A stretch of DNA of 64,000 bases, from contig OZ024743.1 in the NCBI GenBank assembly GCA_964016885.1, positions 66,092,001 to 66,156,000 of the forward strand, given 5' to 3'. Below the pieces are notes generated by a model that saw only the letters and a list, made by a program, of their open reading frames with translations, was not told the DNA's origin and ran no database searches. Origin of the DNA: Eledone cirrhosa. Its lineage: Eukaryota. The position numbers and the translations under genes were made by a program. Below, in pieces: positions 23,563 through 57,588 of the stretch (position 1 is its first letter; every line of letters starts with the position of its first letter).

Positions 23563-25552
23563 GATTTCATTTATTGGCCACAAGGGCCGACATATAGGGG
23601 ACAATACAAAAGACTGGGACAGTGGGGTTTTACAGAAACATCGAGTAAACAATATGAATAACAATAACAAAGTAACAATAAAAATACAACAAGAAAAATT
23701 CCCCAGTAGGGGGGGGGGGGGATGACCACCCAGGGTTCGTTCAGGTACCCCACCAATCATGAACGACCCGACGCTTCGAGAGCACCCTGGAAGGGCACCT
23801 CTCTCCTCCTCAAATTTACCCACCTACAGCCGCATGACCAGAGTAGGCCACTCACACGGGCCATTCTCGCCACATTCACCCACCTTTCAGCAAATGTACT
23901 GGGGGGAAGCACTTCTCTCTCCACCCTCACCTTCCTTTACAAATGAAACTTGAAAAAGTTGATGAGGGATTGGCCGAAGAGAAAAGTGTCTGTCTTCAGT
24001 CATTTCAACCTCGTCCACCATACAACCTCTTTCGCTACTGCCACCAGACAGAAAAATGTCCTGCCCTTCCTGGCCAAAAGAATGCGGCGGGTCGATCTTC
24101 ACTATGGACTCGGCCGATAGCCGGATCCGTTCTACACGCGACAACAGCTGTTCGACATAACTCCACAAGTCAGTAATGCACGGACACTGGACGAGTGCGT
24201 GCAAAACGGTTTCGTCGCTCTGCGCGCATCTCGGGCAGGTCCGTCTGACAGCACTTCCGTGCCTGTAGAGTTTATCTCGAACCGGCAGTGCCCCCCGGTA
24301 GCACTGCCAAGCGAGGGATTTTTGGAAATTATCCATCGTCCCCGGTTCGAAAGTCCTCCGGAACAGACTGGTTAGTTCGACTTCGTCGACTCCCAGAGCC
24401 TCTCCGAGTGCGTCGTCGCACTTCCCACCACTAATAATCCTCAATAGAACTCGAGAGTTGAAATTCCACTGACCGCATTGCCCGCCTGGTAGAGGGAAGT
24501 GAGTGCCTGGCAACATTTCAGATGCCAGTCACCCAGTCTCGGTCTCTTCTTGACCCAGGACTGCAGCTCAGTCAAAGAAACCAGCTGCGGAAAGGCCCGT
24601 CTGACAAACGGCGACCACACCGGTTCACCATTTAGGCAGAATATCTGGAGATGCCACAGCCTCATCGCGTATCTGCGCATCATTAGCCACGGCATGCCCA
24701 ACCCTCCACGTAGAGGGTGCTGGCAGCAGATGGACCGCCTCACCAGCGGAACCTGACCCCTCCACAAGAATTTGAAGAGGAGCCGCTCCAAGATGGCGAG
24801 GCGCGAACGGGGGCAAGGGACGACAGTCAGACAGTAGTAGATGACGGACGCGATGTACGCGTTCGCCACCTCCGCTCGACCTTTCAGTGATAGCTTCCTT
24901 CCAGCCCATTTCTGGGTGAGACTGGCTACCCTGCCCGTCACCTCGTCCCAATTCTTATCTACCTGGAGGTCTGGCCCGAACCAAACCCCGAACAACTTTA
25001 CCGGTCCGTCCGTCCAGCGCCGAACCACGCTGTTTGACGGCATGGACTTGCCTCTCCAGGTGCCGAGTTGCAAGCCCACCGACTTTTTCGGGTTAAGTTT
25101 TGCTCCCGTCAACCTTTCATATTCCTCCAATAAGTTGCTGACCACATCTATTTCTGAGGTATCCGACACAGCCTTTCCGCATCCCGGTTCGAGCGGGATG
25201 CCCTGCAACAGCTCCAGCTTCCGCAGTAAAGGCTCGAGAGTCAATACGTACAGAAGGGAGGAGAGAGGGCCCCCTTGACGGACCGATCGGTAGACCTGAA
25301 ACGATTCCGAGAGGTGGCCATTAATTTTGACCACCGTGCAGGTGCCGCTGTACATTGCAGCGATCCAGTTTCTGAAGACGGGACCAAAGCCAGCCGCCTT
25401 GAGGACAGCCTCCAGGTACCGATGGTCGACTCTATCGAGTGCTTTCTTTTGATCTAAATTAATCAGGTCACCACCGAAGCCAGGTTTACACCCTACCCTC
25501 TCTATGATGTATCGCATTAGGTGGAGGTTGTCGTGTATGGACCTGGTTGGGT
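23563..25552 (-). pseudogene. Tx1/L1-clade LINE ORF2 (RT + C-terminal Zn finger), frameshifted, with 3' UTR
   Basis: LDQKKALDRVDHRYL, VRQGGPLSSLLY, LSLKGRAEVAN, GGLG and CPRCAQSDETVLHALVQC in ORFs 24441-25517 and 23887-24516. The YADD segment is deleted. Confidence 0.9.
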
Positions 25553-26420
25553 CATAATGTGAATGACCGTCCCATTCTGAAGGAGGATGTGGTCCGGGAT
25601 TGTCTTCACATTCTCGGGCCTGATCTGGAGAAGTATCTCCAGGTCAACCCCGGACCAGTCCTCTCTGGCCGTTCTGGTCAATTCTATAGGGACGGTATCC
25701 GTCCCCTCCACAATCACACATCCCAGAAGCCACCACATGTCAAGTCCTGTTGAGATTCTGGGAATGCGGAGATGTGCCGTTCTTTTCACATGTGGGAGGG
25801 GTACATTATGACCTTGCTGGTTTATCAAGGATTCATAGCGTGCTTCATAGCGAGGGCTTCTGACTTGAACAGCACCGAAATGGTGCCGTATTGTCTGCCC
25901 CTTGCTGTGTATTCGGTGTCTTCTCTGATGCACCTCAGTGCGACTTCGACATCTGCTTGTGGGATTAAAGCTGCCTTTTGGTTTCTGCTGAGATGCATCT
26001 ATAATGGACCGTTCTGAGCTCCACTGCCTCAATAGCTTCTACCGGGACAGTTAAGTTGGCCCAGGTTTGCTCTTGCTTGATGAGCTTCCATGCCTGGGCC
26101 AACTTTTCATCTTTGTTTGAGAGGTCCATGTTGAAGCATGGCCTCTTTTTTTCTGCTGCCGCAGCGAAAGTGTTCTTCTTGTTGTCGTTGGAGGTGTTGT
26201 TGTCGTTGTCGTTGTCTTGTTAGTGTTGTTGTTATCACTGTCGCAGTTATCATTGTTGTCTTTGTTGCCACCGTTGTTCTCGGTGCAGTTGGTATTGTTG
26301 CTGTTGGTGTTGTCGCTGTTTGTTTTCATGTTAGTGGTGTTGATATTGTTGTTGCATTTGTCATTTTTTTTTGTTATCTGTTTTTTCGTTGTAGCTGTTA
26401 CTGTCATTTTTTTCAAAATT
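25553..26420 (-). pseudogene. Probable degenerate LINE ORF1 fragment
   Basis: Manual translation gives an Asn-rich start, then NTFAAAAEKKRP...AWKLIKQEQ and YGTISVLFKSEALAMKHA...KRTAHLRIPRI, with stops and frameshifts. ORF1 identity is inferred from style and position. Confidence 0.45.
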
Positions 26421-28328: not shown

Positions 28329-28565
28329 TGAAGGCGCATGGCTTAGTGGTTAGAGCATTGGGCTTGAAATCGAAAGGTTGTGAGTTCAATTCTCGGACTG
28401 GGTGATGTGTTGTCTCCTTGAGCAAGACACTTTATTTCACATTGCTCCAGTTTACTCAGCTGTAGAAAGGAGATGATAGGACTGGGGTTCCTATCATTAA
28501 ATCACCCAAGACACCTCCAACGAGATATACCTTGGAGGAGGCCAGCTAAAGCTGCATAGGTGTAA
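28329..28565 (+). mobile_element. Second tRNA-derived SINE family (CORE-like)
   Basis: TGGCTTAGTGG A-box, GAGTTCAATTC B-box, ccttgagcaagacacttt core; partial reverse copy at 57908-58035. Confidence 0.78.

Positions 28566-47954: not shown

Positions 47955-47956
<2 letters not shown>
47047..47956 (+). pseudogene. Tx1-like LINE 3' fragment in (ATCT)n
   Basis: Homologous to 56611-57590 with an internal deletion; ends aaagaaattt(atct)n. Confidence 0.88.
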
Positions 47957-48026
<70 letters not shown>

Positions 48027-48072
48027 AGATATGTATGTGTGTATATACATGTATGTATGCATATATATGTAT

Positions 48073-48612
48073 AGGTGCTCTGAAACAGCTATATATATAT
48101 GAATGTATATAGTTAAAAGCATTTCGAAGACCTTATGTTATTGTTAGCTTTATCTCCCTTGTTTGCTGAAAATTAAAGTAAGTGAGACTGTCACTACTCT
48201 AAAACAATAGCATAAGGTCTTCGAAATGCTTTTAATTAAGCATACAGTGTATTGCAATATACACTATATATACATTCATATATATATAGCTATTTCAGAG
48301 CACCAATTCTAATTTTCAATTTCTGCTTGACCGGCAACCGCTCTGTATAATCAGTTTCTGACTATTTACTAGAATTCTATAAGAATCAAACATCCATGAT
48401 TTTCAGCAAATAGGAGGAGTAGTTAGCTTTGATAAGCATAAACAAATGCGAAACAGAGCTCTGTCAGCTTTATCTCCCCTGTTTGCTGAAAAAATTAAAG
48501 TAAGTGAGACTGTCACTACTCTAAAACAAGAGCATAAGGTCTTCGAAATGCTTTTAATTAAGCATACAGTGTATTGCAAAATACACTATATATACATTCA
48601 TATATATGTATG
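48073..48612 (+). mobile_element. Non-coding hammerhead-bearing unit (320-nt monomer, ~1.45 copies) with 5' inverted arm
   Basis: agctttatctccc... starts at both 48146 and 48466. 48073-48145 is the reverse complement of 48203-48304 with a ~30-nt skip. Confidence 0.82.
48425..48469 (+). ncRNA. Type I hammerhead, U3-A8 variant
   Basis: AGCT-TTGATAA-GCAT aaacaa ATGC-GAAA-CAGAGCTCTG-TC^AGCT; stem I extends via ttttcagcaaatagg/cctgtttgctgaaaa. Confidence 0.78.
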
Positions 48613-48622
48613 TATATACATG

Positions 48623-48736
<114 letters not shown>

Positions 48737-48749
48737 TATATATATATAT

Positions 48750-49300
48750 AAATTAGACAATTATCAAAGTTATGTTCAAATCATTTAATTGCTGACAATC
48801 GTTTCTTCCAAACATTCGTTTGGAGTCATCGGAGCATTATCAATAGTTGTACATATAATTAACCTCCTATTCAACTGAACAGTCATATAGATACATATAT
48901 ATTGATGTTGTGAGCAATTTCGTATTTACAGGGTGTAATGGATGCGACATATATTATACTTGAATTGTACAAAAATTCAAATTAAAAGCACAGAGTGGAA
49001 TACATGCGACAGATAATACAAGAGAATAGTCTAATAATTAAAGAGGCATTGAGAAAGAATGAGGACACTGGCAGTACATATGCAAGCGTGTAGAAAGAGC
49101 ACATGCGTTAGTCATATATATGAGAAGGAAACAAGCAAAGGTATTAGGCATATATAAATAAATAAATAAATACTGTATGGCAAAGGTATCACATAAAATA
49201 CCAAGCAAATGTGTTAGTATATTTGAACACTATCATCACATTACATCCGCCATACATTTTTAATATACTAACACATTTGGTTGGTATTTTATGTGATACC
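48750..49300 (-). mobile_element. Non-coding hammerhead-bearing element with fold-back at its 5' (right) end
   Basis: Inverted arms 49185-49222 and 49263-49300; HHR at 48790-48836. Confidence 0.6.
48790..48836 (-). ncRNA. Minimal type I hammerhead, U4C change (possibly decayed)
   Basis: Reverse complement: TGCT-CCGATGA-C-TCCAAAC gaat GTTTGGA-A-GAAA-CGATTG-TC^AGCA. Confidence 0.62.
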
Positions 49301-49516: not shown

Positions 49517-49678
49517 CGGTGATGAATTAGTTTTGCGAGGTTTTTTTATATGAAATCGTGTGTCGAAACAAATATTGTTATAGTTGGGGAGGGTCATATT
49601 TGTGTAATATTGCGAGAAGCGAAAACCAACCAAACAGTGAATGTGTTCTGTTATTAATTCTGGCAATATTACACAAAT

Positions 49679-51496
49679 ATGACCCTCCCCAAGTATAACA
49701 ATATTTGTTTCGACACACGATTTCATATAAAAAACCTCGCAAAACTAATTCATCGCCGCTATGGCATTAGCTTGTGCCAAGCTGAAAGGTTATTGAAAGA
49801 CACTGTTTTCTGTTATATAAAAACTACAATAACAAGAGAACAAATCCGCTTCTTAAAACACTGTGTTTCCTCCAAAATATACACAACAAACATATCAAAA
49901 CAAGTAAATAATTTATTATTGAACAAAACACAAGCTGAACGACTAAAACACACAATAACAGTTAATATGAAAAGAACAACATACACAAAAGTCAACGAAC
50001 TTTACAGACAGAAACGCATTAACGGTAAGGAAGTTCGAAATCTCACCACACCAAACGAGAGGGATAACTTCATGAGCGTCATCCGACGTGAAACGAAATA
50101 CGCCCGAAACGAATGCAATAGGCATTTCAATAAGAAATTAGAATGGATGAATAAGAAAAAACTACAAGAAAGGAAAATAGAATATTCTCAAAAATACCCA
50201 GATAACATCGACAATATCCGTATGACTGATGTAAAACTACCGGAAGAATTTACCAATGACCACACAGTAAATATTTATGGGAACACTTTAATCAGTGAAC
50301 AAGAACAACAAATCCTGCGGCTATCACCAAAATTTGCCATCTACAAAAAGATTAACCCTATGGAGTGCAAAACGGAGCTGGAAAAGTGTTTCACAAAAAT
50401 ACGTTGGAATGCAAAGGTAAACAACAACAACAACAACAATAATAACGGTAGTAGTAATATAAACAATAACTCTGAGTATAGAAATAACAGCCATAACAAT
50501 AACAATAGCAGGAAAGTGAGAAATAGTGATAATGGTAATAATACTAATGATAGACAGAACAACAACAACCACAATAATAATAATAATAGAAACATTAACC
50601 ACAGACACAGCAGCAGCGACCACAGTAGTAATAACGGTAACAATACGAACAACAACAACAATAACCACAGTGGTAATAATGGAAATAGTACATGTAGCAA
50701 CATTAATGAAAGACACAACAAAAACAAGAAACATAATAAAAGTAACAACCACAATGGTAGAAATAACAGTAACAACAACAATAACGGCGAAGTAAACAAC
50801 AATACATCTAGCAATCATAACAATAATAATAATGCTAATGATAGAAACAACAACAACCACCATGATAACAATAATAGCAACACACACAACTATGACGATA
50901 GATATAATGACAACCCCTTAGAGAAACTATTTTTCAACCCAGCTGACAAAACATATAATATGGGTAATATTTATCCTACGAGGTTACCCTTTAATAAAAG
51001 AGTTTGCATACCACAACAAATAGATGACGAGACAGAGGCACAGTTCACCATAGCTAGAAATAAGATTAGACAAATAGTAGACAGGTATACTAAGAGAAAG
51101 AGCAGACCAGACGCCCAACAACTTGGGAGGAAACCTGTAGAAGGCTTGGTTAGCCTCAAGCAGCGCACAAGGGATGTTGAGGTAGTATGTCTACCCACGG
51201 ATAAGTCTGGTAGGATGTCAATAGATAGCATGCCGAACTACATCAAGGCTATGCAACCCCACATCACCAACACGAGCGAAATTGCACAACAAACACACGA
51301 TGGGAGAGAGAAAATCCTCAACGCTCACATGATGATGTGGACTGACATCCTAAAGCCAAGCAGACGCACTGCCAACAACTTCCAGGCGTCTAACAATGGC
51401 ATACCACCCTTGTATGGGCTCCGCAAAGACCACAATACAGAGTCGACGACCCGACAACAGGACCACCAACAAGACCCGTATGCGGAGCTAATATAG
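49679..51496 (+). CDS. PLE polyprotein N-terminal part (Asn-rich insert, DKSG and LYGLRKDH motifs); frameshifted at ~51435
   Basis: 605-aa ORF with ILRLSPKFAI, CLPTDKSGRM and PPLYGLRKDH; continues in another frame as VDDPTTGPPTRPVCGAN. Confidence 0.88.
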   Translation: MTLPKYNNICFDTRFHIKNLAKLIHRRYGISLCQAERLLKDTVFCYIKTTITREQIRFLKHCVSSKIYTTNISKQVNNLLLNKTQAERLKHTITVNMKRTTYTKVNELYRQKRINGKEVRNLTTPNERDNFMSVIRRETKYARNECNRHFNKKLEWMNKKKLQERKIEYSQKYPDNIDNIRMTDVKLPEEFTNDHTVNIYGNTLISEQEQQILRLSPKFAIYKKINPMECKTELEKCFTKIRWNAKVNNNNNNNNNGSSNINNNSEYRNNSHNNNNSRKVRNSDNGNNTNDRQNNNNHNNNNNRNINHRHSSSDHSSNNGNNTNNNNNNHSGNNGNSTCSNINERHNKNKKHNKSNNHNGRNNSNNNNNGEVNNNTSSNHNNNNNANDRNNNNHHDNNNSNTHNYDDRYNDNPLEKLFFNPADKTYNMGNIYPTRLPFNKRVCIPQQIDDETEAQFTIARNKIRQIVDRYTKRKSRPDAQQLGRKPVEGLVSLKQRTRDVEVVCLPTDKSGRMSIDSMPNYIKAMQPHITNTSEIAQQTHDGREKILNAHMMMWTDILKPSRRTANNFQASNNGIPPLYGLRKDHNTESTTRQQDHQQDPYAELI

Positions 51497-51528
51497 CTAG
51501 TAACTACAGGATCTCCTACTTCCTCTCA

Positions 51529-53322
51529 ATGGTTATACGCCCCATAATCAAGATGTCCCCAGATGTATGTGACAGTACAGAGGACCTCCTCAGCATAATC
51601 AGTGAGTGCAACAAAAACAGGAACCTATCCAACTGCATAATAGGCAGCATGGATATGGTGTCACTGTACCCATCCATTAACATTGATTTTGCTGTGAAAA
51701 GATGTGTGGAGATGATCATTGAGAGTGAGGTGGAGTTCTGCAACGTCGACACAGACGAACTGGGCCTCCTACTTAGACTTACCTACGACACTGACTATCT
51801 AGACAGCCATGACCTTAGACGTTTCTGCCCTTGTAGACCTATAAGAAGTAGACCCCCCACCATAACCTCAATGCCAAAAAAGACTCCCATGGGAAGGTGG
51901 ATTGGGTGGACCAAAGCTATACGGACCCCCCAAAACAATGATCAGGTAAGAAAAATGGTCGCACATGCAATAGGGGCTAGTATCAAAACTACCCGAAAGG
52001 GCCACATATTTAAGTTCAACGAGAAGATCTACACCCAAAATGAGGGAGCAGCCATCGGCGTCAGCATAGCTGGTGACGTTGCCAACCTTTTCGTGGTATG
52101 GTGGGAAAGGAGACTTAAAGATCTCCTTAATGAGAGCTCCATAGACCTCATCATGTACTCTCGTTATGTAGACGATATCAATATAGTTATAAGAACACCC
52201 CCACTAGAGAGCACTAACAAGTTTGATTTAGAACGTAGCACGATGGAAAGCATCCAGCAGATAGCTAATTCCATACACCAGAGTATAACTGTAACTATCG
52301 ACTACCCTTCCAAACACCCTAACAATAGACTACATGTATTAGACACGGAACTCTGGATTAACACTATAGACGAGAGAGCCCAAATTCTCCACTCACACTA
52401 TGCTAAACCCATGGCCTCCAAATACATGATACTCAAAAACTCAGCAATGTCCAGTAGTGCTAAGTTTAATATTCTGATCGCAGATTTGGTACGAGTGATG
52501 AAGAATGTGTCCCGCATGTGCGACCCAACAGAAATGGAAAGACACATCCAACACTTCATCAACCGCATGCAGTTCTCTGGCTACAACCAAAGAGACAGAC
52601 TCAGAGTATACGAAGGAGCCATGGAGAAGTATAAGACCCTCATAGAACTGGACATGAAAGGAATTTGCTCATTATACAGGAGCACATCATGGAATAGCTT
52701 AGATAGGGCTAGACATAAGATAGGGAAAGCCACCTCATGGTACGACAACCAGAGATACCAGAGTGTCATGTTTGTGGACGCTACCCCTGGAGGGAAATTA
52801 GCTAACCAGTGTAGAAAGGCCCTGAGAAAGACCAACTTAAAAATTAAGGTGGTAGAAAAGCCAGGAACCACCATAAAATCCCTGATCAGCAAAACCTACC
52901 CTTTTAAGAAAACCCACTGCACCAATAGGAAATGTATCATATGTAAGGTAAACCCCCGGATAAACTGTAAAACTAGAAACGTAGTCTATAGCATAAGATG
53001 TACAGAGGGTACTTGCAGAAACATGACAACAACATACATAGGTGAGACAGCTCGTAGCATAGGTGAAAGGATAGACCAACACTGGGGGGAACTAAAAGGA
53101 CGAAAAAACGGGTCAGTACTATACGAACATGATAGACAACAACATGACGGTAACATAGACAACATAGAAATTAGAATAATATCTAAACATAGAAATGACC
53201 CAGCAGATAGGCAAATCAGAGAGGCCAGTGAAATAGAAATTAGAAGACCAAGACTAAACAGAAAGAATGAATGGAATAACACCAACACCCAAACAAACAA
53301 CACTGACCTAAGAGGAGTATAA
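51529..53322 (+). CDS. PLE reverse transcriptase + Cys-rich linker + GIY-YIG endonuclease
   Basis: GSMDMVSLYPSI, YTQNEGAAIGVSIAGDVANL, YSRYVDD, HCTNRKCIIC, VVYSIRC..C..YIGETAR..ER..QH; the frame is open from ~51440. Confidence 0.93.
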   Translation: MVIRPIIKMSPDVCDSTEDLLSIISECNKNRNLSNCIIGSMDMVSLYPSINIDFAVKRCVEMIIESEVEFCNVDTDELGLLLRLTYDTDYLDSHDLRRFCPCRPIRSRPPTITSMPKKTPMGRWIGWTKAIRTPQNNDQVRKMVAHAIGASIKTTRKGHIFKFNEKIYTQNEGAAIGVSIAGDVANLFVVWWERRLKDLLNESSIDLIMYSRYVDDINIVIRTPPLESTNKFDLERSTMESIQQIANSIHQSITVTIDYPSKHPNNRLHVLDTELWINTIDERAQILHSHYAKPMASKYMILKNSAMSSSAKFNILIADLVRVMKNVSRMCDPTEMERHIQHFINRMQFSGYNQRDRLRVYEGAMEKYKTLIELDMKGICSLYRSTSWNSLDRARHKIGKATSWYDNQRYQSVMFVDATPGGKLANQCRKALRKTNLKIKVVEKPGTTIKSLISKTYPFKKTHCTNRKCIICKVNPRINCKTRNVVYSIRCTEGTCRNMTTTYIGETARSIGERIDQHWGELKGRKNGSVLYEHDRQQHDGNIDNIEIRIISKHRNDPADRQIREASEIEIRRPRLNRKNEWNNTNTQTNNTDLRGV

Positions 53323-53554
53323 ATAAGTAAATAAAATAAAATAAATAAATAAATACATACACAAGCACAATAACAAGCACATAAACACACACTAGTCACC
53401 CATCACACATCAAACAAAACACTATACACACACGCAAACGCATGCGCAAAGAAGACAAAATACAATAAACAAACAAGCAAATAAATAAATAAATATATAG
53501 ACAGACTGAATAAAAATGGCGTAGACATACAATACAACAGGTGGAAAAAATAGC

Positions 53555-53596
53555 ACCACTGACGATGTTGCAGATGTGCAACGAAAGATTTATGAT
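53555..53596 (+). ncRNA. Minimal hammerhead-like motif in the 3' pLTR
   Basis: ACCA-CTGACGA-T-GTTGCA gatg TGCAAC-GAAA-GATT-TA^TGAT; aligns with 32939-32981; stem I imperfect. Confidence 0.58.
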
Positions 53597-53821
53597 AAAC
53601 TATATATGTGTGTTTGTGTCTATATTGTATCTGTATTATTTTTGACCGTCGGTCAGTCAATGGCAACATTGAGGACCGAGTAAGTTAGATTACCGATATA
53701 AAAGACACAGAAGCGAGAAGCGAAAACCAACCAAACAGTGAGTGTGTTCTGTTATTAATTCTGGCAATATTACACAAATATGACCCTCCCCAAGTATAAC
53801 TATATATATATATATATATAT

Positions 53822-55575: not shown

Positions 55576-57588
55576 CTGGTGGGAGAAGCGCAGACATGCG
55601 CAATCCCGACCAGGTCCATACACGACAACTTCCACCTCATGCGATACATCATAGAGAGGGTAGGGTGTAAACCCGGCTTCGGTGGGGCCCTAATCAACTT
55701 GGATCAGTCTTAGGCTTTCAATAGGGTTGACCATCGTTACCTGGATGCGGTGCTCGAGGCGGCAGGCTTCGAACCCGTTTTCGGGGCTGGATTGCTGCAA
55801 TGCACAGCAGCAACATCTGCTCAAGGGTCAAGGTGAACGGTTACCCCTCGGAGCCGTTCCATATCACGCGATCCATCCGACAGGGAGGCCCTCTCTCCTC
55901 CCTTCTGCACGTACTGACTCTCGAGCCACTACAGCGGATGCTGGAGCTATTGCAGGGCCTCCCTTTGGAACCGGGACTGCGAAAAGCGGCGTCGGCCTAC
56001 GCCGACGACGTAATAGTAATGGTGTCGTGCGCCTCGCAAATCAGGGAGATCGGCACCTTGATAGAGGAATACGAAAGATTTACAGAAGCGAAGCTGAATC
56101 GGGACAAATCCGTCGGTTTGCAACTCGGAACGTGGAGAGGCAAACCGATGCCTTCCGATGGCGTCGTCGGACGCTGGACGGAAGGACCGGTAAAGCTGCT
56201 CGGGGTCTGGTTTGGTCCGGACCTCCACGTGGAGAAGAACTGGAACGAAGTGACGGCCAAGGTTTTTGCGCTCACCCAGAACTGGGCCGAGTGCAAACTA
56301 TCCTTGAAAGGTCGAGCCGAGGTGGCGAACACTTTTATAGCGTCCGTCATCTACTACTGCTTGACCGTCGTGCCTTGTCCAGCCAAAACGCTCACCAAAA
56401 TGGAGCGCGCGCTCTTCCAATTCCTTTGGAAGAAACGGGCTCCTTTGGTGAGAACCATCTGCTGCCAACACCTTTCAAACGGAGGGCTGGGAGATGCCGT
56501 GGCTGACGATGTGCAAACACGCGCTCAGGCTGCGGCACCTCCACGTATTCCTCACCAGACAACCGGTGTGGGCCCCGTTCGTGAGGCGAGCCTTCCCACG
56601 ACTCGTCTCGCTGACCTAGCTGCAGTCCTGGGTCAAGCAAAGACCGAGGAAAATGGGCGACTGGTACATCGAATGTGCTCAGGCGCTCACAGTCCTCTGG
56701 CAAACGGACCCGGCGATCAGTGGAGACTCCACTTCGACATTCTATAGAGAGTTGGTCCGCAGCAGGTGCGACGACACGCTCGCAGAAACTCTAGGCGTAG
56801 AGGCGGACGAACTGGCCAGTCTGTTCGGTACCAATGGACAATTTCCAAAAGTCCCTGGCCTGGCAGTGCTACCGAGGAGCTCTACTAGTTCGAGACAAGC
56901 TCTACAGACACGGCTTCCCGGGTAGGGACCCTTCGAAAAAGATCTGTCCGAGATGCGTGCGCGACGAGGAAATCGTCGCGCGCGCATTTGTACACTACCC
57001 GCGTGTTACCGACCTGTGGGGTTATGTAGAACGACTATTGTCACGGGTGGGACCAATCCAGTTGACCACCGAGTCCATTGTCATGATCAAACCGCCACCC
57101 TCCTTCAAAAACGAGGGAGAGGCGGTTTTCCTATGTGTTATGGCTATGGCGAAAGAGGTTATATGGTGGAAGAGGTTAAAAGGGCTGCGATCAGACACCT
57201 TTCTTTCCGGCGAGCAATTTATTCATTTTTTCAAATATTTTGGAAGAAGAATCAGGATTGACAGAGAGGTGCTGTACCCAAGCAAATTTTATAAAAGGTG
57301 GGTGAATGTGGCAAAGATGGCCCGAGTGGTTGGGCCTTCTCTCTATGTAAGCCTGTAGGTTGAGGAAAAAGAGGAAGAGAGGAATGGAGTACTCACTCTT
57401 GGCGCTCTTGAGGATGAGGGTTGTACATTTTTTCGGGGTGTGTACAATCCCTGTGTAACGCCTCCCCCTATTGGGGATTTCAATTGTTATTTGTTATTTT
57501 ATTAATAGTTTTATTTTCATATACCTGTATGTAAACTCCCATTTGTATTTGACCCCTTCTTTTGTGCCCTTGTGGCTAATAAAGAAAT

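Follow-up and report, generated by a model that had tools for sequence, protein, structure and literature searches.

The window analysed here is a 64,000-nt stretch of Eledone cirrhosa DNA. At positions 48074 to about 48608 it carries an insertion of a 320-nt repeat with microsatellites on both sides, namely a (TATC)n plus TA-rich target on the left (47956-48073) and a (TA)n target on the right (48609-48750). An earlier sequence-only reading had proposed that 48146-48465 is precisely one cut-to-cut unit of 320 nt. We compared the region with the window by BLAST and found the 13-mer AGCTTTATCTCCC at 48146 and 48466 only, with the C of the GTC at 48465, positions that confirm this proposal. By BLAST and family comparison, this full unit (+ strand) belongs to subfamily A and is 96% identical to the medoid unit. 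It is followed on the same strand by a partial second unit (48466-48608), which by BLAST and comparison of units covers positions 1 to about 142, ends at the short 3' site and then passes into (TA)n. Upstream, BLAST and reverse-complement comparison with the unit identified an inverted, 5'-truncated arm (48074-48145, - strand) that covers unit positions about 58-90 and 122-159, with a 31-nt hairpin skipped and with its outer end near the long 3' site (unit position near 160). This inverted arm directly adjoins the sense arm at 48146, as had also been described. No ORF of at least 170 aa was found within the insertion, and no LTR-like layout was seen there.

The bases before 48146 (TGT-T) match those preceding the true cut (TGT-C) at three of four positions, and in the BLAST alignment to the family medoid the sense arm begins at -4. 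Because the T before 48146 continues the inverted arm, we prefer a blunt join at +1 (48146), which is the simplest reading of the sequence and needs no extra mutation.

The sequence across the boundary between the two sense units contains a type I hammerhead (48400-48494, + strand), whose long stem I spans about 24 bp and includes an internal loop, as judged from its fold, a weak match to Rfam Hammerhead_HH9 and pair counts in 45 copies. The catalytic core strand U3-U4-G5-A6-U7-A8-A9 (TTGATAA; 48429-48435, + strand), recognized by motif reading, is followed in order by stem II (GCAT/ATGC), GAAA, stem III (ACAGAG/CTCTGT) and GTC. Stem III (48453-48464, + strand) is perfectly palindromic over 12 nt, with AGCT as its loop, as read from the sequence and family comparison, and hammerhead numbering places the predicted cleavage site, GUC^A, at 48465-48466 (+ strand). 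The core boxes (3-9, G12-A13-A14-A15.1 and U16.1-H17) lie around three stems with stem I open, which is the type I arrangement, and U3-A8 replaces C3-G8.

Using a pattern that fixed U4, G5, A6, A9 and GAAA and left positions 3 and 8 free, we found 207 distinct instances of this motif in the first 250 loci of the family, 196 of which carry the TTGATAA core. Four compensated stem II haplotypes make up 179 of the 207, and the pair next to the cut co-varies between U-A and C-G. Across 45 aligned copies, 91.5% of stem cells are paired (98.9% in stem II, where three of the four pairs show double changes), and there are 77 double-change cells in comparison to 26.8 ± 5.8 in shuffled data and no more than 9 when the partners are slid. 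The count of 6 co-varying pairs was not above shuffles (461 of 500), the changes representing a few inherited haplotypes. These data confirm the U3-A8 hammerhead named in the sequence-only reading and support the view that it is under selection for its fold. The same reading had presented a pairing between 48400 and 48158 as bringing the termini of the unit together. This pairing is present in the predicted fold (z of -6.6 for 48396-48494). Being the outer part of hammerhead stem I, however, it does not amount to separate evidence, because any cut-to-cut type I unit has a stem I pairing.

No hammerhead in the window reached the Rfam gathering score, the HH9 match at 48412-48487 having 20.6 bits (E 0.0077) against a gathering score of 52. 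In a nearest-neighbour model, the lowest-energy fold buries the core strand against the 5' strand of stem III in 113 of 152 copies (median 3.9 kcal/mol), and this predicted alternative helix counts against easy cleavage of the monomer. Models of this type omit the core and the loop-loop (tertiary) contacts. Stem III is perfectly palindromic in 57 of 152 copies, which could allow a dimeric hammerhead. U3-A8 cores with the same compensated pair occur naturally and are active in vitro (PMC3088659), and one is also described in a variant of the Schistosoma Penelope-like element Cercyon (PMC4209133). The hammerheads described in PMC4209133 are minimal, heterogeneous and mostly single, whereas the motif analysed here is canonical, has a long stem I and lies in a tandem unit.

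In the 3.0-Gb genome (G000; 1,796 contigs), exact matches to cut +1 to +23 numbered 1,140 for subfamily A and 1,576 for the subfamily B equivalent, the medoid units of the two subfamilies being 86% identical. We obtained 31 distinct full cut-to-cut units of 301-322 nt and found two or more units in succession; the sequence upstream of the hammerhead invariably returns to the unit itself, in some cases more than 20 times over. The 320-nt repeat, which has at least 2,700 exact cut-site matches and forms tandem arrays, can be classed as a non-LTR retrozyme family. One array (L017, G000:C2:208901089-208908177) holds 23 matches in 7.1 kb, or about 23 subfamily-A units, and is a candidate source of multimer transcripts and circles. 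The matches of subfamily B are split unevenly between the strands (945 vs 631), which hints at a much larger array.

The family shares with the non-LTR retrozymes of mussel, coral and axolotl (PMC7229834) tandem units in the 150-450-nt range, low GC content, one type I hammerhead per unit and no ORF, as well as a span from dimers to long arrays, thousands of copies and a self-paired monomer; here the predicted circular fold of the unit has -72.1 kcal/mol, in comparison to -51.6 ± 5.3 kcal/mol for 40 shuffles. Units of this size and kind make circles in other animals (PMC7229834). Unlike these metazoan retrozymes, the present family has a U3-A8 core throughout and a 4-bp stem III with a palindromic loop, dispersed inverted pairs, not plain arrays, make up most of its copies, and its RNA circles and cleavage are predictions. 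We found no published report of the family in the literature, in which supplementary lists of mollusc hammerheads may include it, and a term search of one cephalopod repeat annotation (PMC13282606) returned no mention of ribozymes.

Units within one insertion differ by 5.4-6.5% (subfamily A) or 2.0-2.3% (subfamily B), as against 9.2% (A) and 4.8% (B) between loci, as expected if each insertion derives from one template haplotype. This pattern suits rolling-circle copying of one circle and also transcripts of uniform arrays, and DNA alone cannot tell a circular template from an uncut multimer. A test for a mixed linear multimer as the template showed no difference between same-rank and different-rank units when arms were compared (22 vs 33 of 55 loci). 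At four loci (L008, L036, L066 and L067) the difference between arms (7-12%) exceeds that between units within an arm (3-7%), as if the two arms had been copied from two different RNAs.

The ends of the insertions have a characteristic anatomy. Among 360 unclipped 3' ends at 250 loci, 299 fall at two fixed sites, the short site at 139-147 (160 ends) and the long site at 164-176 (139 ends), and TA-rich sequence lies downstream of 122 of the 160 short-site ends and 134 of the 139 long-site ends. The +168 site lies outside any TA run, and this speaks against the 3' ends being alignment artefacts of such runs. Of 124 unclipped inverted pairs, 85 combine a short and a long end, 3 have two short ends, 1 has two long ends and 35 have a non-canonical end; when both ends are canonical, 85 of 89 pairs thus use one site per arm. 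The focal copy fits this two-site pattern, with the sense arm ending short and the inverted arm near 160. The 5' ends, by comparison, are scattered over the whole unit (185 ends).

The combination of a tail on one arm, an inverted 5' copy and a (TA)n target, all of which we found in this family, is that of Penelope-like elements, which are described as having a tail at one end, inverted 5' copies and a (TA)n bias (PMC8557442). The likeness to the EN+ elements (Neptune, Naiad and Poseidon; PMC8557442, PMC11167929) extends to two fixed 3' ends about 26 nt apart (the "tail") on one arm only, to the inverted 5'-truncated copy and (TA)n targets, and to a hammerhead upstream of the reverse transcription starts with read-through of the cut site. 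In an anole element of this type, reverse transcription starts at two internal sites and uncleaved RNA is the main template (PMC11167929). Based on this anatomy, a Penelope-type enzyme likely made the retrozyme insertions. Unlike the EN+ elements, the unit has no RT or GIY-YIG ORF, either within it or joined to it, and we found no sequence link to an autonomous element; a search for an autonomous partner across 310 loci gave no non-TA flank joined at a common point.

We propose that the focal copy is a hammerhead retrozyme that was probably reverse-transcribed and put into (TA)n by a Penelope-like retrotransposon, and that its start at the cut site is probably one of many scattered 5' truncations. 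At the sequence level, this proposal draws on the tandem and partial-tandem units, the co-varying hammerhead and the 3' ends at about +142 and +168. Tandem loci would be transcribed, the hammerhead would cut at GUC^, perhaps best as a dimer formed through the palindromic stem III, and the cut units would be ligated into circles. A Penelope-type RT/GIY-YIG protein may then nick both strands of a (TA)n tract and start two cDNAs internally, one per site. Each cDNA would run backwards across a ligated or uncut hammerhead and stop at a variable place, and the two cDNA ends would then be joined head to head, in many cases through short homology or filler. To form the focal copy, one cDNA would have extended over 463 nt before stopping at +1 of the unit upstream.

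The circles would come from tandem loci rather than from the focal locus. As the focal locus carries one intact hammerhead core only, a single cut, at 48465, is predicted for its transcript, and ordinary cis-cleavage would not release a 320-nt monomer. The junction at window positions 48139-48146 recreates UGUU^AGCU; it is a matter of speculation that the single intact core might also pair with this upstream junction, through a stem III of 3-4 bp, and cut it.

The present data bear on the mobiliser of retrozymes in animals and on the role of Penelope-associated hammerheads. Penelope-like elements have been proposed as the movers of animal retrozymes (PMC7229834), and a 2026 preprint (10.64898/2026.07.22.740005) ties the two together by co-occurrence, distribution and pLTR homology; its main text contains no analysis of a "tail" or of a "breakpoint" (insertion end). 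Retrozymes, U3-A8 cores and Penelope tails are all already known, and a single flagged junction is no discovery on its own. The useful part of the present data is the family-level Penelope signature, and its base-level form, in a hammerhead unit that is non-coding and present in thousands of young copies, makes a good test set.

The main alternative concerns the 5' end of the sense arm, which the sequence-only reading had presented as a genomic footprint of self-cleavage in vivo. In this alternative, which we consider rather unlikely, the family and the mobiliser are the same and the template of a few per cent of insertions is a multi-unit linear RNA whose 5' end was made by hammerhead cleavage, with reverse transcription running to that end. 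The blunt join exactly at +1 in the focal copy favours it, as does the precedent of R2, in which 5' junctions follow ribozyme cleavage (PMC3774820). However, in the anole Penelope-like element no reads end at the hammerhead cut and cleavage is not needed (PMC11167929). A histogram of 5' breakpoints across the family, as had been suggested, showed no dominant peak; the ends are spread and about 98% of arms pass the cut, unlike in R2, whose HDV-like ribozyme is moreover a different ribozyme in a different element (PMC3774820).

In subfamily A, the C before the cut is kept in 1,096 of 1,140 matches. All 44 matches without it were inspected (43 distinct contexts) and comprised 23 point changes, 4 short deletions in the hammerhead and 16 rows called as arm ends. 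After dropping L063, which by eye starts at -7, and counting both arms of L102, we arrived at 16 arms from 14 events, 13 of them other than the focal copy. Starts at +1 therefore represent 1.4% of the A arms that reach this position (16 of 1,140), in comparison to 0.55-1.0% per base elsewhere, such that the focal start is uncommon but not far above background. The lower background value comes from unselected A loci only (71 ends over 12,875 bases at risk, or 0.55% per base), as loci chosen for their breaks near the cut bias the pooled hazard. Against it, the 13 events exceed the 6.3 expected about two-fold (P 0.012), whereas at a background of 1.0% per base the excess has a P of 0.36. In subfamily B, 32 of 1,576 matches lack the C, and inspection of 30 of these (25 distinct) yielded 4 arm ends (0.25%, of a denominator that includes long arrays) vs 3.3 expected at 0.21%. 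We thus observed no R2-like pile-up at a ribozyme-defined 5' end, and with so few A arms beginning at the cut and B at background, the claim of a footprint is unsupported in the form in which it was made.

A search for breaks from -10 to +8 returned 107 matches, with 98 distinct contexts among the 100 matches listed; 7 non-family matches, 4 indels and 10 out-of-range breaks were set aside. Among the matches listed, A/C/D ends numbered 8 at +1, 4 at +2, 3 at +3, 2 at +4, 0 at +5, 8 at +6, 10 at +7 and 8 at +8. The 43 ends at +1 to +8, three of which look misclassified by eye, exceed the 13 at -1 to -10, a roughly three-fold step in density across the cut that would be consistent with cleaved templates, but +1 is no higher than +6, +7 or +8, and among the B matches listed there are 11 ends on the plus side of the cut and 10 on the minus side. 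Two loci, L098 and L102, have both arms ending at +1, which also favours a footprint. Against it, inspection by eye showed AG, AGC or AGCT in common with the partner arm at many +1 junctions, AGCT recurs in stem I and loop III, and the step falls where the long stem I helix ends.

We also followed a fresh sample of 54 arms that enter an upstream unit at +41, which remained from 60 loci after removal of 2 queries, 3 loci already examined and 1 in the same array. One of the 54 ends at +1. Between +1 and +40 there were 20 ends in 1,789 bases at risk (1.12% per base); 34 arms read through, 33 of which end over the next 279 bases (0.94% per base), and the rate at +1 to +40 is not significantly above that of the rest of the arm (ratio 1.18, P 0.32). 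An excess of ends at +9 to +40 of second units (11 in 584), noted post hoc, was not replicated against the rest of the arm in this sample and was discarded. Ends were rarer at -1 to -40 (5 in 1,223 bases at risk, 0.41% per base) than at +1 to +40, as a footprint would have it. In subfamily A, the drop in breakpoints just upstream of the cut leaves room for a minor contribution of cleavage. Under a microhomology-weighted null, the weight at +1 is only 1.06-fold and leaves the excess unexplained; this null is crude, with 43 of 61 junctions resolved only as "insertion".

Pure chance does not explain the two-fold excess of A at +1 together with the step across the cut. The step could arise from cleavage of a few per cent of the templates, from the long stem I helix ending there, or from homology at AGCT, which recurs. 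On balance, we doubt that the focal junction records hammerhead cleavage, while giving the idea some weight. The broader scenario is tentative to a similar degree: the family would record, on the scale of the genome, the hijacking of a Penelope-type RT by a protein-free ribozyme circle. Two cDNAs would be primed at the two fixed sites, with each target strand strictly using one of them, and would continue through the hammerhead after its re-ligation; a minor fraction of insertions, including the focal copy, would come from cleaved linear RNA and mark the cut site in DNA. The negative result is itself of use, as cleavage does not set most template ends. Several fold-back insertions (L098, L102, L087, L138, L148 and L170) have arms that meet almost symmetrically at +1 or at +7/+8, and in L098 the two arms that end at +1 are joined by a T run.

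It is much less probable that the unit, instead of being an independent retrozyme, serves an autonomous Penelope-like element as its terminal repeat (pLTR), the loci being heavily truncated copies of that element. The insertion anatomy is indeed that of Penelope-like elements, and Xenopus retrozymes are described as resembling pLTRs (bioRxiv 10.64898/2026.07.22.740005). Against this explanation, sequence upstream of the hammerhead always loops into the unit, no coding flank is shared among the 310 loci, and stem III is full length, unlike in the minimal hammerhead of the pLTR of a neighbouring element. That neighbour is a nearly full-length Penelope-like element at window positions 49517-53800 (+ strand), with an inverted 5' end, an RT (YVDD) and GIY-YIG split over two frames and an Asn-rich insert. 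It has a degenerate C3-G8 minimal hammerhead at 53559, a second copy of which lies at about 2770 (- strand) of the window. By its CxxxxCxxC linker before the GIY-YIG domain, the element appears to be of the Neptune type (PMC8557442). We rejected it as the specific partner of the retrozyme, with no similarity to the unit beyond TA runs. Its end motif, which has 13,959 exact matches in the genome, occurs in 9 of 310 retrozyme loci (two pairs of which are at the same or duplicated places) vs about 3.9 matches expected, and shared (TA)n targeting could explain this co-occurrence.

Finally, an Rfam score far under the curated cut-off and a preferred fold that buries the core in most copies might suggest an ordinary satellite or SINE-like repeat in which the resemblance to a hammerhead is due to chance or is that of a dead motif. 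This is scarcely credible against the four compensated stem II haplotypes, the co-varying pair next to the cut, the omission of core and loop-loop contacts from folding models, and the natural occurrence and in vitro activity of U3-A8 cores noted above (PMC3088659). Insertion of a retrozyme by a Penelope-type enzyme, with scattered 5' truncation, is the reading that we prefer to all of these alternatives.

Many different elements are common to the same (TA)n tracts. In the (TA)n flanks of two loci (L099:860-960 and L220:1641-1740), another repeat family carries, by eye, a hammerhead core of the canonical C3-G8 form on the opposite strand. Elsewhere in the window, RT fragments (PF00078) lie at 24444-25643 (- strand) and 55731-56744 (+ strand), and a weak tRNA match at 28337-28400 (+ strand), the sole Rfam match at gathering score, is probably SINE-derived.
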